From a phage, in the sequence record OZ413487.1: a DNA stretch of 64,000 bases; one strand, written 5' to 3'. Below are positions 2,467 to 40,184 of this stretch, piece after piece. The translations under genes and the position numbers were made by a program. The stretch's first letter is position 1, and each line of letters starts with the position of its first letter. Below the pieces are notes generated by a model. The model saw only the letters and a list, made by a program, of their open reading frames with translations, was not told where the DNA came from and ran no database searches.

Positions 2467-4890
2467 ATGAGCATGTGGTCGTTCGACTTTGAGTCATCCG
2501 GTTTGCTGGAAGACCCAGATCTTTATTATCACTGCGGCCTGTTTAAAGAGCTGAATAAGAACCGTTTTATGCTGTTCCTTCCTCTAAATGACCGCACACA
2601 CTACTCCGAGGAGGATATAGAAAAGGCTAAGAACTTCATTCTGGCAAAGAAAACTCTTTATAAAGATTTTGAAGTTCGCATAGCAGATTTTTCAGAGTTG
2701 GAAGGTTGGCTTACAGGAAATTCTGACTGGTCACCAACAGCTTTGAACTGCCATAACTGCTACAGTTATGACTTTATGCTGATGGAAAGATTATCTGGTA
2801 TTCATTTTGATATGTTCCGTGATCCTAAATGTATGGGGACTATCAACGATCACCAGGTTAACCTGTTTGATACGTTGGCGATGAGCCGAATCTTGTGGCC
2901 TGATCGCCCTTTACCAAAAGGTTGTCCGGACTCTGTATTCAACCCGGTTACTAAGAAAATGCAGCCTGTTGGTCCTCACGGCCTTATGGCATGGGGCTAC
3001 GCCCTTGGTAACCAGAAAGTTCAAATTGATGACTGGCGCGATCTTCCGTTGTGGAAGTATGTGGATCGTGTATTCGAGGACGTTATCATCCAGGAGCTGC
3101 TCTGGAAAGAGCTGGTAGCGGAATCAAAAGGTGTATTCTACGGCAAATCTGACATGCAGAACTTTATGTACGATCCGGCCAAAGAGAAGCCGAAAGGGTT
3201 CAAGAAGATCACCTGGAAGAACGCATTACGTCGAGGCATGCTGCAGCACTTCCTGATGGAGCTGCAGGCCCGTCAGGGTGTATACTTCGACATAGATGGA
3301 GCTATTGCTTTACGTGACCGTTGCGATGCGTGGATGAAAGAAATCGCTGATCGTGTTGAACCACAACTACCTTTAAAAGAGCTGTCAATGTCTCAGCGGC
3401 CCAAGTTCCCTGAAAAGCCGTTTAACCAAGACGGGACAATCTCTAATAATGGTTGGAAATGGTTAAAAGATAAGCTTGGCTATCCTGTAGACATGAGTGC
3501 TTTAGAGTTCAAAGCCCTGCCTAAGCGAGCATTTACCTCTACAGGAGATGTCAGCAAGATGGGGATAAAATGGTGTGAAGAGATGGGCTGCAAAGACCCC
3601 GATAAGATGGCTGATTTCTTGAGAGGCTATATTAAGGGCACCTCCACACCACAACCCTTACCTAAAGAGCTGATGGATCAGGCAATAAGTGATCTGCAGC
3701 AGAAGCGAATGCCTGACTGCAAGATACCTATGAAAATCAGCAATCAGGACGACATCAAGCGATACCTAATCAGTGCTGGTTGGCTCCCAACAATGTGGAG
3801 AACTAAAGATGTAACTAAAGACAGCAAGAAGAAAGCTTTACCTGATGCAGATGTTGATGCACGAGTATATGCATATATGGACGAGCTTTTGGAGTCAGAG
3901 TATTGTGACCTAATTATCAACTTCTGGAACAAAACTGATGCTAAGTTCCAGACAACCGTGCACAAGTTCCGAAGCTTTCCTAACTCCGAAAGGATTAAAA
4001 AGGAAGTATTCGGGAAAATACGTAGAAAAGCCAGGGCACTTATTACTTCTCCGCAACTGAAAGATACGTTTGGACACCTATGCCCAAATCTTGAAAAATT
4101 GAACGGAGAGATGGCTAAAGATATCGTCTTGTGGTTATCATTGCGAAACCGCAGATCGGTCCTTGATCCAATCAAGGAGGATAAGGTTGATACTGGTCTT
4201 CTTAATCACCCACGTTTGAAGATTGACCATAAGCTTCCTGCTAAAAGCTCTGGATTAACAAACACTTCCAGACAGAAACACAGTATTTGTGCAAACATGC
4301 CTAAACCATCTCCTAAAGTAGTTATGGGTAAAGAGATGCGTAGTCTGTGGGGTGTTCCTCCAGGATACTTTGAGATCGGTATTGACGGGTCCAACTTAGA
4401 GCAGCTCATCGGGGCTTGGGGTGCCTTTGAGTTCGACAACGGCTTGTATTATGATGTTGTAAGTAACGGAGACGCACACCAAAACAATGCTGAGGCATAT
4501 ACAAAAGTGGCAGGCAGAGAGGTGTCCCGTAACGACGGTAAACCTATCACGTATGGGGTTATGTACGGGGCACAAAAAGATAAAGTTGCAGATATGCTGG
4601 ACATCTCCCCAGAGTTGGGACAAAGGGTAATCGATGCACTCTGGGATGCCAACCCAGGTCTTAAGGGGCGCAAAGAGGATCTGGAGAAATTCTGGGAAGC
4701 AACAGGTAAGAAGTTTATCTACTCTTTTGATGGTCATGCTATCTGGACCCGATCTAAACACTCTTTACTTAATGCATACCAACAAAATGGCGGTGCATCG
4801 TTGTGTGACTTAGTTGGAATACTCATGCACCACCAGATGGTGAAGCGTGGGTGGTACGATGAAGGTGTTCGTCGTATTATTTATTACCAT
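2467..4890 (+). CDS. DNA polymerase, family A, exon 1 (3'-5' exo + polymerase motifs A and B, up to His of motif C)
   Basis: N-terminal exo I motif FDFESSGL; motif A GIDGSNLEQ; motif B RNDGKPITYGVMYGAQ; ORF ends ...RRIIYYH-K-stop where family A polymerases have VHDE. Confidence 0.8.
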
Positions 4891-5166
4891 AAATAACATT
4901 GTGGCTTCATAGAGTAATCTATGTCGAATAACCTCTTTAACTGCGGGAAGCCTAAACCTTATGGCAAGGTAATCCGCAACGAAGCGCTCAAAAGAGCGAA
5001 CGCTCAGAGGCCATTCCGAAAGGAAGTAGACCAGCAAGTGCGGTCGAAATGGGAGGATTCCTGTGGTTGCTTATCATAGGAATATGAGATGGTCCGATCC
5101 TACGTGAAAACGTATGGCTATGCACGTAATGGTGCGGGGTAGCTTAACGACCTACCTGAACTATTG
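4891..5166. other. putative group I self-splicing intron in DNA polymerase gene
   Basis: Exon 1 ends in U (4890); intron ends in G (5166); internal guide CAUUGUGG (4897-4904) can pair with exon-1 end CCAU (P1, U.G at splice site) and exon-2 start GAUG (P10); four in-frame stops; splicing restores YYH-DEYQLQV. Confidence 0.55.
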
Positions 5167-5520
5167 GATGAGTACCAACTTCAAGTGCCTGACACACCGA
5201 AGTATAAGACTGTGTACACCTTCGACACAATTGAAGAACTGGAAGCATTTAAGGCAGAGCAGGAAGCCAAACTTCATGTGTTCGACGGTCATAAGTACAA
5301 AAAGGCACGCAAGGATGAGGACGGAAACGAAGTGGTTGACAGAGACGGAAACACGGTGTACGATCCTATCCTGAACGATGACGGAAAGCTTGAACTTATC
5401 TGGAGCCCTGTGGGTGAAATGGTGGTACATTGCTTCTGGCAAGCTTCTAAAATGATGGGAGTCCCGTTCCAGATCACAGGTGAATACTTGTGTGGTCGTA
5501 ATTGGGGTGATTGTCACTAA
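5167..5520 (+). CDS. DNA polymerase, family A, exon 2 (motif C Asp-Glu and C-terminal end)
   Basis: Same frame as exon 1; begins DEYQLQV (T7 pol has HDEIQVG); ends GRNWGDCH, like T7 pol C-terminus GPNWAICH; ORF-track start 5164 is the TTG ending the intron. Confidence 0.6.
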   Translation, partial: DEYQLQVPDTPKYKTVYTFDTIEELEAFKAEQEAKLHVFDGHKYKKARKDEDGNEVVDRDGNTVYDPILNDDGKLELIWSPVGEMVVHCFWQASKMMGVPFQITGEYLCGRNWGDCH

Positions 5521-22584: not shown

Positions 22585-22848
22585 ATGAAACGTCTTGATC
22601 AGCTCAAATTAGTTCAATATATGGCTTATCGTGTTCTTGAAGTCCAGAAAGGTAGCAAAAAAGAGGTTTGCGAGAAAGCTTATAAGATCTTCACTCGCAA
22701 AAAAGATGACTGGATGCTACGCCAGACTAAAAAGGCTGACATCTTGGGGTACCTGGAAGAAGAGATCCGCCTTGAAGAGCAAGAAGAGATCCGCCGTAGT
22801 GAGGCAGATTATCAGGCAGCTTGGGAAAACTGGATGAGCAACAAATAA
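22585..22848 (+). CDS. hypothetical protein
   Basis: ORF track; AAAGAGG RBS; last + strand gene before the noncoding zone. Confidence 0.5.
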   Translation: MKRLDQLKLVQYMAYRVLEVQKGSKKEVCEKAYKIFTRKKDDWMLRQTKKADILGYLEEEIRLEEQEEIRRSEADYQAAWENWMSNK

Positions 22849-22867
22849 TACAACAAGGTGCACGGTC

Positions 22868-22893
22868 AGGGGCTTAAAGCCCCTTTCTTTTTG
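22868..22893 (+). terminator. intrinsic terminator ending the + strand gene block
   Basis: AGGGGC-TTAAA-GCCCCT followed by TTCTTTTTG. Confidence 0.7.
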
Positions 22894-23502
22894 TCTCCTC
22901 TTTTCCTACCACAAATGGCCCCGCCTGGCAAATGGAATAATCAACAAGCCAGCAATTAACCCCACTGTACAAACATACATATAAAATAACTATTGCATAA
23001 TTTTTCATTGTGTGGTAGCAGTGCCATTTTTACACGTTTTTCCTTCCAAAATTGCACGTAATGCAGCATTTGCACAAAATTTAACCTGATGCATATCTTC
23101 AATAGCTTGTCAACAACTAAAAATCTTTATAAGTCATACACTTACATAACTACAAAAACGTTTTCTACGTGAAAAATCGAGTATAACTATAGCCGCCAGA
23201 TCTCAGAATTTACGTACGCTCGCCATTCTATAGCCTGCTAAGCATTTATTCCAACCATAGAATAACGGAATAGTCAATACCTGCATAAAATAATTATTCG
23301 TGTAAACTGCATAACATAAATCGGCCCAGGTGTCAACATTTTTCGTAAACAGTCTGGAATTGTCACGTTAGGTTACCATAAGCAGAGAAATCTTTAGTCG
23401 TCTAATGTTTACTGTACATTACTATACTGACTGGAATCATTAGATGACTAAGAGAAAGATAAGAAATAATTAATAATGTAATTATTTTACCTGTAACAAT
23501 AA

Positions 23503-23760
23503 GGCAACTATGCAAACGAATGGCATGGCGCGACGGAGTCGCGACATAATATAAAAGCAGTAACCATCACCCCCGTGATAGTTTGTCTGCAAACTATTAA
23601 TCAGATCATAGTTGCCTTGTATTTAGTTAATCATGACATGACAAGCAAGGCAACTATAGATCTGCTAATAGTTGCCCTGCTTTTATATTATGTCATGCTA
23701 ATTATAATCAGTGCGATTATTGTCATGTATAATTATTGTCATGCAAACGAATGGCATGGC
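23503..23760. repeat. GGCAACTAT motif x4 (two inverted pairs) bracketed by 19-nt direct repeat TGCAAACGAATGGCATGGC
   Basis: Direct repeats at 23511-23529 and 23742-23760; 12-bp inverted repeat ATAGTTGCCTTG / CAAGGCAACTAT at 23608-23619 and 23646-23657. Confidence 0.6.
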
Positions 23761-23767
23761 TGATTAT

Positions 23768-23862
23768 CGGTGTGTAAACAGTCAATCATGTAAATGGTTA
23801 GCATGTGAACAATCAGGAATGTAAACAATCCAGTGTGTAAACTAATAGGTGTGTAAAAGTGT
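23768..23862. repeat. TGTAAAC iteron cluster (5 copies in ~95 bp)
   Basis: GTGTGTAAAC x2-3, ATGTAAA, AATGTAAAC at 11-25 nt spacing. Confidence 0.55.
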
Positions 23863-24134
23863 CATGTTGTGTCAGTTAGGTCACATTATGTCAGACAAGT
23901 TTTTCTCCTCTTTGTCAAGTGCTGCATGAAAAATTTACAAGCTTGTATGGTAGCATTTTTGCGGCCCTGTTTACATTCAGTAATGTATGTATAATCCTTG
24001 TTGTGTGGGCGTTTAGACGTCTAGACGGTTGGAAGTCCACAGGTCAATATCTAATCTATCGGCTGCTAACTATATCCCACACAAATAGTAAGAAATATGA
24101 TTGTTATATGCGTAAACTGTAACTCATGTTATCA

Positions 24135-24505
24135 ATCCCTGTATGGATCGCCAGTGGTGCGCATAATAGGTATTATGTTAAATTGCCCGTAATGATAACA
24201 GTTCTCACAATGATAGGTATTCTCATTCATCCACACAAAATAGGTTGCAAATGTTGTGCCACTGTGTGAACGGCCTGGCCTATTAATTTCTCTCACTGCC
24301 TCGATATTTGAGAATTGTTATCCCTGTATGGATCGCCAGTGGTGCGCATAATAGGTATTATGTTAAATTGCCCGTAATGATAACAGTTCTCACAATGATA
24401 GGTATTCTCATTCATCCACACAAAATAGGTTGCAAATGTTGTGCCACTGTGTGAACGGCCTGGCCTATTAATTTCTCTCACTGCCTCGATATTTGAGAAT
24501 TGTTA
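24135..24505. repeat. tandem duplication, two ~185-bp units
   Basis: Unit beginning ATCCCTGTATGGATCGCCAGTGGTGCGCATAATAGG... occurs twice head-to-tail, essentially identical. Confidence 0.85.
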
Positions 24506-25564
24506 TAAGAATGAGAAGTATTCCCATTCCGTCCGCCTGGCAGCACTCCTGTAGGTCCTGCAAGGACTCTAGCTGAAAGCTAGACCCTTCGGGCCTCCCT
24601 GTAGGTCAGGTCAAAATCGTGGTAGAATTGGGCCTGTTCAGATATTTCTGGCTGACTCTTCAGGTCTGTGTGGGAAAAGCCAACCTCTCCGGCGGGGCAG
24701 GGGGTCATGACGGGAAAATTGCAGGTCAATTAAAAAATTTACGTGGTGTATGAAGCGCTCTTCAGGTAAGGCATGTATTATGGGATGAAACCCTCTTCAG
24801 GCAATGATATTTGTGGGTGTGATATTTGCTGGAAAGCCAGATATGACGGGACTCCCGGCGGGGATGGGGTAGTACAGACAGGGAAAATATGAGAATGTAG
24901 TTGGGGAAATTGATCAGACAGGTAGAGTATGGAATATGTTACAAGTATGTTAAATATGGAGGTTGAATATCTGTAGGATTTGTGTGTAAAATCAAAGACT
25001 TAAGGGGTGTTGTGGTATTTTCTATAAATAATTCAAGTTTAATAGGCAATATTTGTCTCTATCCGCTTTGTGTGGTAAACAGATTCAGATTAGATTGGTT
25101 TACAAGTGTATACATAATATACAAATTAAAGATACAAGAAACCCCCCTCCCCCTTCGGCTACCATTCACCTTTTCCTCTGACTGGTACTTAAACACTTAT
25201 TCAGACTCTTCAGGTTATCACCCATATATCATATGGCAGTGACTGGTGTCCTCCGGCCCCTCTTTCGTCACCCGTCCGCTTCGCCATGCTAATGCCATAG
25301 CCAATGGTTCGGTTGTTCACTCTGTTCACTCAGGTGTATCTCCATACCCCTTCAAACCGAAGAGAACAGAAAACCCGAATTACTCGGTAAAAGAAAAGAG
25401 AAGAACTTAATTTTATCAGGATAGGCAAGAATGTCAAGGCATGACTGCTCACTAAACAAGCAAACAGTCATGTGTGGAAGGTAAGTGATTGTGGTGGTGG
25501 GAAATTTAGTTGAAAGATGTGTTATAGGTGCTCCCAGCACTTTAGCCGGGTAGCTAATTGTGTG

Positions 25565-25846
25565 TCAGTCCAGTGGTTCATCACCTACTTCACTGAAATC
25601 AATGTTCATGGTCTCCTCCCAACCATCAATCTCAGCACCAGAGTAGAGATCTTTAGGACTTACTCCCAAAGCATCAGCAACAGAGTCCATATTTAACACC
25701 TCTGGCAGGTATGATTCATCGAATTCAAGGTAAATCAGGCCACGAGTGTTGTCAGCTCCACCAAATATTTCTATCTTCATGAAATCTCCTCTGGGAATGA
25801 GAGTGTGAACAGGGTTTATACGTTCCAATGCGCTGGAATTATGCAC
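25565..25846 (-). CDS. hypothetical acidic protein
   Basis: ORF track; last gene of the - strand block. Confidence 0.4.
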   Translation of the reverse strand: MHNSSALERINPVHTLIPRGDFMKIEIFGGADNTRGLIYLEFDESYLPEVLNMDSVADALGVSPKDLYSGAEIDGWEETMNIDFSEVGDEPLD

Positions 25847-39395: not shown

Positions 39396-40184
39396 TTACT
39401 CGGAAACAGGGGTCCAAATATGATTTGCACGATCCTCAATAAGATTGAGTGCGATCTGACGACCCAACCCAGAACGAACGACATCGTCTGGACTATCAAA
39501 GCTGATCATTCCAACCTCAGGATCTGGATGACGAGTAAAGAAATCCGTCACCCATGCAAGGCCAGATTTACCAGGGATGTCACGTTGGCTATTATCACCC
39601 ATAATTACAAGGGTGGCTTGATCAGAGATCCTTGTGATAATTGACAACATTTCTTCAGGGTTAGTTTGCTGTGCCTCGTCAATCAGGACAAAGCATCGCT
39701 CATCGAAACTACGACCACGAATGCTTTCAACTTCACAAATCTCGATACGACTGTTCTGACCGTCTCCCAGCATTGCGGCAAAAGCACCTTTGCCAACACG
39801 ACGACAAATCGTGTCCATCATGCTTCGAAGATAGGGCCACAGTTTCTGCATTGCATTTCCGGGTTTAAATCCTGAAGTCTTTCCTGTCTGGACGTAAGGA
39901 CGTGCAACAATGATCTTATCAATCTCATTCTTACGCAGAAGATCACCTGCATATGCAGATGCCATGAATGTCTTACCGGATCCAAACACACCGTTTACAA
40001 TAATAATCTTACGTGACCCTAGATAATCAAGATACTTTTGCTGCTTTTTATTCATTGGTCGGAGAGCTGGAGCGGTGTGCTCTCGTTCGTCAGCAAATTT
40101 CTCAGCAGCCTTACGCAGGCGATCAGATTTGCGAGCCTCTCTAGCTTCATCACGCATGCGTTTTGTTTCTTTAGCTCGACCCAT
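39396..40184 (-). CDS. phoH: PhoH-like ATPase
   Basis: Walker A GVFGSGKTF; Walker B VLIDEAQQ; PhoH-type length. Confidence 0.85.
   Translation of the reverse strand: MGRAKETKRMRDEAREARKSDRLRKAAEKFADEREHTAPALRPMNKKQQKYLDYLGSRKIIIVNGVFGSGKTFMASAYAGDLLRKNEIDKIIVARPYVQTGKTSGFKPGNAMQKLWPYLRSMMDTICRRVGKGAFAAMLGDGQNSRIEICEVESIRGRSFDERCFVLIDEAQQTNPEEMLSIITRISDQATLVIMGDNSQRDIPGKSGLAWVTDFFTRHPDPEVGMISFDSPDDVVRSGLGRQIALNLIEDRANHIWTPVSE

Follow-up and report, generated by a model that had tools for sequence, protein, structure and literature searches.

The stretch of DNA analysed here, 64,000 nt of phage sequence record OZ413487.1 (hereafter the window), contains at 22895-25564 a zone of 2.7 kb in which two convergently transcribed gene blocks meet. 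A preliminary description, made from the sequence, had noted that this zone is rich in repeats and holds no credible open reading frame (ORF), and had suggested genome ends, a packaging site, a replication terminus or origin, or noncoding RNA (ncRNA) genes as explanations of so large a gap. The interval 22800-25700 matches 122 phage records at 80-99% identity, nearly all of them Vequintavirus, which identifies the sequence as that of an rV5-like myovirus of Escherichia coli. Here we describe the anatomy of the zone and compare it with the direct terminal repeats (DTRs) of related phages. The edges of the zone and the segment at its centre are as follows.

22868-22884, + strand: intrinsic terminator closing the + strand gene block (hairpin AGGGGCTTAAAGCCCCT and then a T run; annotated as a terminator in phage Alma)
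22895-23480, no strand assigned: AT-rich spacer without a conserved ORF (ORFs broken in relatives, no codon bias)
23894-24537, no strand assigned: DTR equivalent, identified by homology to the DTR of phage LL12 (left cut before 23894, right cut after 24537)
24135-24504, + strand: perfect tandem duplication of 2 x 185 bp (24135-24319 and 24320-24504) inside the DTR equivalent, missed in the preliminary description
25565-25846, - strand: final gene of the - strand block (third-position substitution bias, 2/2/11)

Gene blocks and coding content of the zone

The last gene of the + strand block stops at 22848, and the - strand block ends with the gene at 25565-25846. In most relatives examined this final gene is annotated as a product of 71 aa starting from an ATG, which would place its end at 25780, and its rV5 counterpart, ORF 163, is annotated as 282 bp. 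To compare coding potential, the zone was aligned with 13 relatives and variable columns were counted per codon position. Third-codon-position bias was found in none of the zone's 23 ORFs of 30 aa or more, and most of these ORFs are interrupted in relatives. Both real genes on the flanks showed it, their variable columns at the first, second and third positions numbering 2/2/11 and 1/2/6. The zone therefore contains no credible ORF, as the preliminary description had stated. A search of an E. coli genome collection returned no match to the zone, which indicates that it is not derived from the host.

The probable terminal repeat and its boundaries

The genome announcement of phage LL12 gives a non-permuted terminal redundancy of 459 bp, predicted by PhageTerm. 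This 459-bp segment maps to 23894-24537 at 95-96% identity. The corresponding repeat of phage Gotham is annotated as repeat_region 1-459 and 136567-137025, identical copies that correspond to 24537..23894. Phage YN3 has an exact 458-bp repeat at both ends of its record, with the same boundaries. In addition, the version 2 record of bov10K2 begins at 24537|24538, and the record of Pr121LW begins at 23894. Both boundaries thus coincide to within 1 nt in LL12, Gotham, YN3 and the bov version 2 record, and the left one also in Pr121LW. Compared with the DTRs of LL12, Gotham and YN3, the segment in the window has 94-96% identity, identical boundaries and the same place between the convergent blocks. 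It measures 644 bp here and 458-459 bp in these relatives, and the extra length is exactly the private 185-bp duplication.

The boundary sequences themselves are strongly conserved. At the left boundary, TGTCA^GACAAG is invariant in 18/18 Vequintavirus genomes, though the short repeats directly upstream of it vary. The right boundary reads CCGCC^TGGCAG, and its bottom strand, TGCCA^GGCGGA, is found in 15/18. A more distant comparison is offered by Klebsiella phage KPP-1 (Vequintavirinae, Mydovirus), for which coverage of about 2x and a 514-bp DTR of T7 type were reported from PhageTerm analysis (PMC9862379). The boundaries of this DTR are TGCTA^AACACA and TGCTA^GACGGA. Hence both mature 5' ends, in Vequintavirus and in KPP-1, are preceded by TGYYA and start with RRC (TGYYA^RRC), on opposite strands. 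Such an arrangement would fit what the classic staggered-nick and strand-displacement duplication of a terminal repeat requires.

KPP-1 resembles the OZ413487.1 phage in several other respects. Its DTR also lies in a noncoding gap between convergent gene blocks, a large dyad stands on the same side of the repeat, and the two ends of the DTR are homologous (..TTCTC.CTC.TTGTCAAG.. and ..GTCCG.C). An alignment of the DTRs of 459 and 514 nt gives 290 identical columns, about 50-60% of positions. KPP-1 differs in that the sequence of its dyad is unrelated, that it has no TGTAAAC array, and that its other flank is about 330 bp long as against about 1030 bp here.

Judged by these sequence comparisons, the centre of the zone is homologous to the DTRs of LL12, Gotham and YN3, with ends that were determined from reads or annotated in GenBank, it shares their boundaries, and its architecture is conserved across two genera. 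A homologous repeat with both boundary sequences intact is thus present in the OZ413487.1 phage. The phage very probably has short, non-permuted DTRs, with the zone as its concatemer junction and thus the place of its genome ends. Of the explanations offered in the preliminary description, genome ends and a packaging site are the ones that comparison with relatives bears out. The genome ends are known in outline for this group, though reports conflict, and the fine anatomy of the junction seems to be undescribed in searchable papers.

The conflicting reports would favor headful (pac-type) packaging of a circularly permuted genome, with the zone either a pac site or unrelated to the ends and the '459-bp repeat' an artefact of analysis. 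On the genome map of rV5 (Kropinski et al. 2013), the same region is a 'non-coding' box without ORFs; the paper gave this box no function and described the genome as circularly permuted (PMC3606486). Moreover, PhageTerm analysis of Nextera libraries called the bov phages 'circular permutated' (PMC8407724), and BpE1AUH was called headful (PMC13211470). The rV5 statement, however, came from 3.6x Sanger shotgun coverage and not from an analysis of ends. Transposase libraries, as used for the bov phages, are poorly suited to calling read starts, and later versions of the bov records begin exactly at the DTR boundary. The agreement of the records on the boundaries, the 2x coverage over the repeat of KPP-1, and the invariance of the boundary sequences (left 18/18, right 15/18 genomes) while the flanks vary also argue against headful packaging. 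We regard it as highly improbable.

The 185-bp duplication inside the repeat is private to this genome. It is absent from all 13 relatives aligned across the interval, and the single-copy arrangement at its junction, with the halves about 185 bp apart, is found in all 25 records listed among 120 matching phage records. The duplication junction was not found in IMG/VR or in JGI metagenome contigs. By our reading of the sequence, TGTTAT microhomology is present at the junction, which would fit recent slippage. The duplication may be a real event of this kind or, equally, an artefact of assembly.

Two further observations concern the repeat. A DnaA-box-like sequence, TCATCCACA, lies in it and is too degenerate to count as a box. 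The deposited record of Shigella phage CM1 (MK962749; L013, 960-2723) contains the terminal repeat twice in tandem, and the short stretch between the copies takes in the final ~35 nt of left-flank iteron sequence. These tandem copies are either a real duplication or an effect of the DTR on assembly.

Elements flanking the repeat and neighbouring genes

On the left side, between the AT-rich spacer and the left cut, five elements were found.

23510-23529, + strand: copy 1 of a 20-nt direct repeat, ATGCAAACGAATGGCATGGC, left of the dyad (in all 18 genomes examined)
23543-23694, no strand assigned: cruciform-capable dyad of about 150 bp (from fold z-scores and conservation; missed in the preliminary description)
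23741-23760, + strand: copy 2 of the 20-nt direct repeat, ATGCAAACGAATGGCATGGC, right of the dyad (in all 18 genomes examined)
23773-23858, + strand: six TGT(A/G)AA(A/C/T) iterons at 15-16 nt spacing (six copies within 86 nt; background 0.66 per kb per strand)
23860-23893, + strand: four (T/G)GTCA repeats at 9-10 nt spacing, the last abutting the left DTR end (missed in the preliminary description)

The direct repeat had been described as 19 nt long at 23511 and 23742; its presence stands, and its size and positions are corrected to 20 nt at 23510 and 23741. The inverted pairs noted earlier are also real and form part of the dyad. Four copies of GGCAACTAT lie in the zone in forward, reverse, forward and reverse order, and five occur in the whole window against 0.49 expected. 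The outer stem of the dyad is perfect over 18 bp, its inner stem is made by the GGCAACTAT/ATAGTTGCC pairs, and it also has a side hairpin. Folded as RNA, the dyad gave z-scores of -9.0 and -7.3, and folded as DNA, -11.5. It is 97-100% identical in the 13 relatives and is retained in 18/18 genomes, with insertions solely at its apex or after it, and it stands 200-350 bp before the left cut at 23894. In KPP-1, a dyad of unrelated sequence occupies the homologous side of the DTR; its outer stem is perfect over 21 bp, and its fold z-score is -11.7. Retention of a dyad in place while its sequence has been replaced suggests that the structure itself matters.

On each strand the dyad presents a terminator-like hairpin followed by CTGCTTTTATATTAT, and the two tracts are identical because the 18-nt inverted repeat reads the same on both strands. 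It could accordingly be a back-to-back bidirectional terminator, or a pair of antisense small RNAs, that shields the junction from convergent transcription. In keeping with this, the near-consensus promoter at 25437-25410 is directed at the junction, and a preprint places a T7 RNA polymerase terminator or pause site in the T7 concatemer junction too (bioRxiv 10.64898/2026.02.12.705533). On the other hand, the strong terminator at 22868-22884 already closes the + strand block, and reading by eye found no convincing conserved sigma-70 promoter just outside the dyad on either side. Covariation, which might part a role as RNA from a role as DNA, is not available, as the sequence is nearly invariant within the genus. 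On balance, a terminator or small RNA function of the dyad seems unlikely, if by no means far-fetched.

The TGTAAAC iterons, placed at 23768-23862 in the preliminary description, are real and form the six-unit array at 23773-23858, with three exact copies and three variants. Both the number and the sequence of the iterons vary strongly among relatives, and the interval from the second 20-nt repeat to the start of the DTR ranges from 118 to 263 nt.

The segment 22895-23893, with its AT-rich spacer, iterons and dyad, could be read as a replication origin, comprising initiator sites and a DNA-unwinding element, instead of or besides a packaging element. GC content is 0.35 across 23001-24000, the iterons are phased, the dyad is strongly conserved with an analogous one in KPP-1, and GC skew changes sign across the zone 22895-25564. 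The skew, however, changes where transcription switches direction, and the skew change at 104425-105475 of the rV5 genome was likewise tied to transcription orientation by its authors (PMC3606486). Moreover, no initiator gene adjoins the zone, and iterons that stop exactly at the cut and vary freely in number between strains are a better fit to a junction element. The suggestion of a replication origin or terminus is thus unsupported, the skew being explained by transcription, and we hold an origin to be unlikely.

The right side of the repeat has a different set of elements.

24538-24607, + strand: right junction flank, with TGGCAG at the cut and then two copies of CCTGTAGGTC 50 bp apart around a small hairpin
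24654-24900, + strand: two degenerate units of about 85-105 nt plus an extra CTCTTCAGG (repeat families)
25150-25403, no strand assigned: ultra-conserved noncoding block of about 250 bp (from conservation)
25375-25387, - strand: terminator-like hairpin CCGAGTAATTCGG and then GTTTTCTGTT
25410-25437, - strand: near-consensus sigma-70-like promoter, TTGACA-16-TAAAAT with an upstream TG (11/12 hexamer positions)

Both repeat motifs that had been reported on this side, one in two copies and one in four, were recovered well above expectation. CCTGTAGGTC occurs at 24548 and 24598 (0.09 copies expected), and relatives have deletions of 24, 50 or 56 bp between or around its copies. CTCTTCAGG occurs at 24656, 24758, 24793 and 25206, with eight copies in the whole window against 0.5 expected. 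The order within the degenerate units is CTCTTCAGG ... TGTGGG ... GGAAAGCCA ... CCGGCGGGG.(A/T)GGGG ... GGGAAAAT. In the same flank, GGCTGACTCTTCAGGTC matches the corresponding flank of KPP-1 at 16/17 positions. It was also observed that TGATATTT is repeated at 24804-24827 and is present in matching orientation near or inside the corresponding repeat end of KPP-1 (L016, 2916-2942 and 3059-3070). This is a weak hint, from sequence matching, of a protein-binding site shared by the two phages.

Further to the right, the block at 25150-25403 is more conserved than the neighbouring genes, and 25155-25275 is invariant in 14 genomes. Among 119 matching Vequintavirus records, the best match to 25130-25500 never falls below 95% identity, and in 48 of them it reaches 99% or more. 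The block gave no coding, folding, Rfam or host-homology signal, and a distant blastn search with the two most conserved islands returned no match outside the genus Vequintavirus. Our guess is that it is a cis-acting DNA element. The hairpin at 25375-25387 is the probable end of - strand block transcripts. The promoter-like site at 25410-25437 points toward the terminal repeat, and both of its hexamers are conserved in relatives.

Unrecognised ncRNA genes, for example at 24640-24900 or 25150-25403, might also account for a conserved noncoding region, as had been proposed. The conservation of 25130-25500 in 119/119 matching records, the paralogous CTCTTCAGG units and the strong promoter-like site on the - strand all fit this idea. 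Against it, ARAGORN found no tRNA or tmRNA in the whole window, and Rfam 15 gave no match in the zone at the gathering score, with hits at chance level only when E values up to 10 were allowed. Fold z-scores for 25110-25403 and 24538-24900, on both strands, are -0.15, -0.56, +0.69 and -0.27, so that no fold signal was obtained outside the dyad. In addition, the terminator-like hairpin stands directly downstream of the promoter and ahead of the conserved block. The proposal of ncRNA genes is not borne out by these results and is, in our judgement, quite improbable.

Several observations were made on neighbouring genes and records. At 22857, directly after the + strand terminator, 9/13 relatives carry an insertion of about 563 bp which the OZ413487.1 phage does not have. 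This insertion contains a gene for 139 aa (rV5 ORF164) with its own annotated sigma-70 promoter (e.g. L003 3194-3613, L011 395-814). The 87-aa product of the last + strand gene (22585-22848, + strand) is labelled 'DNA translocase FtsK' in several relatives (nomo, APECc02); this label looks to have been carried over from one record, and the protein is far too small for the role. A search of IMG/VR for loci with this flanking protein returned only two. Nineteen records named 'Campylobacter phage' (MG0656xx) match the region at high identity, the one listed, C14, at 93.6%, and the record of Campylobacter phage C7 (MG065658) is flagged UNVERIFIED. These records are probably mislabelled or contaminant assemblies.

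Elsewhere in the window, a group I intron (RF00028, 64.7 bits) at 4881-5116 on the + strand interrupts a family-A DNA polymerase gene. The polymerase ORFs are 2467-4896, ending ...IIYYHK*, and 5164-5520, containing ...DEYQLQ, and, judging from the translations, the split appears to lie within the conserved YYH|DE polymerase motif. In the rV5 paper, a polymerase of 775 aa is listed and introns are mentioned only in the terminase gene (PMC3606486).

The probable concatemer junction and its likeness to T7

If the zone is a concatemer junction, a single copy of the repeat (23894-24537) in replicating DNA would join two successive genomes, lying between the right end of the first and the left end of the second. 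The + strand block would then belong to the right genome end, together with the AT-rich spacer, dyad and iterons, and the - strand block to the left genome end, together with the conserved block and the CCTGTAGGTC flank. Packaging would take two cuts on opposite strands, the top strand being cut at TGTCA^GACAAG and the bottom strand at TGCCA^GGCGGA, and the repeat would be copied so that both daughter genomes carry a terminal repeat, as in packaging of T7 type. Cis-acting elements for recognition and processing may be provided by the phased short repeats, which extend as far as the left cut, and by the dyad about 200-350 bp upstream. The parts of this scheme that we infer are the presence of the same ends in the OZ413487.1 phage, the polarity of the nicks, and what the iterons, dyad and right flank do.

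The layout can be compared with that of T7, as checked on the T7 sequence (NC_001604). In T7, an array of CCTAAAG with a 13-nt period lies at 175-340, just inside the 160-bp terminal repeat. The terminal repeat on the right is closely preceded by a second array at ~39,606-39,744 and, at a distance of about 190 bp, by a 19-nt inverted repeat at 39,568-39,608. Both phages thus have a short, non-permuted terminal repeat abutted by arrays of short repeats with a fixed period, and both show the same order of palindrome, short-repeat array and terminal repeat, with the palindrome about 200-300 bp upstream on the right-end side. Both also have a leftward host promoter near the left end, A0 in T7 and the site at 25437-25410 here. 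By analogy, the zone may work like the T7 junction.

The two systems differ in other ways. T7 is a podovirus of 40 kb with its own RNA polymerase, whereas the source phage is a myovirus of about 137 kb. There is no sequence similarity between T7 and the zone, and the dyad of T7 is about 40 bp long compared with about 150 bp here. On the right side of the repeat in the OZ413487.1 phage, only the two CCTGTAGGTC copies and scattered AGGTC and CTCTTCAGG copies are found, which is much less regular than the T7 array.

Some points weigh against a junction with fixed ends, in addition to the permuted and headful calls for rV5, the bov phages and BpE1AUH quoted above. The ends of the OZ413487.1 phage are deduced from homology only, and the private duplication within its repeat could be an assembly artefact. 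Iterons that adjoin the cut and yet differ in number and sequence between strains would be odd for a strict recognition site. The likeness to T7 is one of DNA layout, and the roles of the short-repeat arrays of T7, SRL and SRR, are not known to have been established.

A more specific proposal can be formulated for the fine anatomy of this concatemer junction. The iterons, the TGYYA^RRC nicks and the dyad conserved in position might together supply all the cis-acting parts with which a large myovirus makes short terminal repeats. Staggered nicks, a hairpin primed from the dyad, or both, might duplicate the repeat, and the block at 25150-25403 might be a further cis element, for packaging, ejection or replication. 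We put this forward as a tentative possibility. To our knowledge, repeat duplication by staggered nicks or by hairpin priming has been proposed for T7 and never settled. A hairpin intermediate in T7 was reportedly described by Chung, Nardone and Hinkle in 1990. Hairpin DNA species in T7 infection were taken as support for one model of repeat duplication, according to a second-hand account in a later paper (PMC4281155).

Genomes of rV5-like phages are deposited with arbitrary starts, and several papers state that they are circularly permuted, so the true ends matter for genome maps. They also matter for the engineering and rebooting of phages that are widely used in therapy and biocontrol, and for the risk of generalised transduction, as packaging with fixed ends is less risky than headful packaging. 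Moreover, duplication of the terminal repeat is unsettled even for T7, and this subfamily offers about 120 natural junction variants. These may be used as a mutational series, in which iteron number varies, deletions affect the CCTGTAGGTC copies, and the dyad is conserved in position only. The ultra-conserved block of 250 bp gives a concrete target for such studies.

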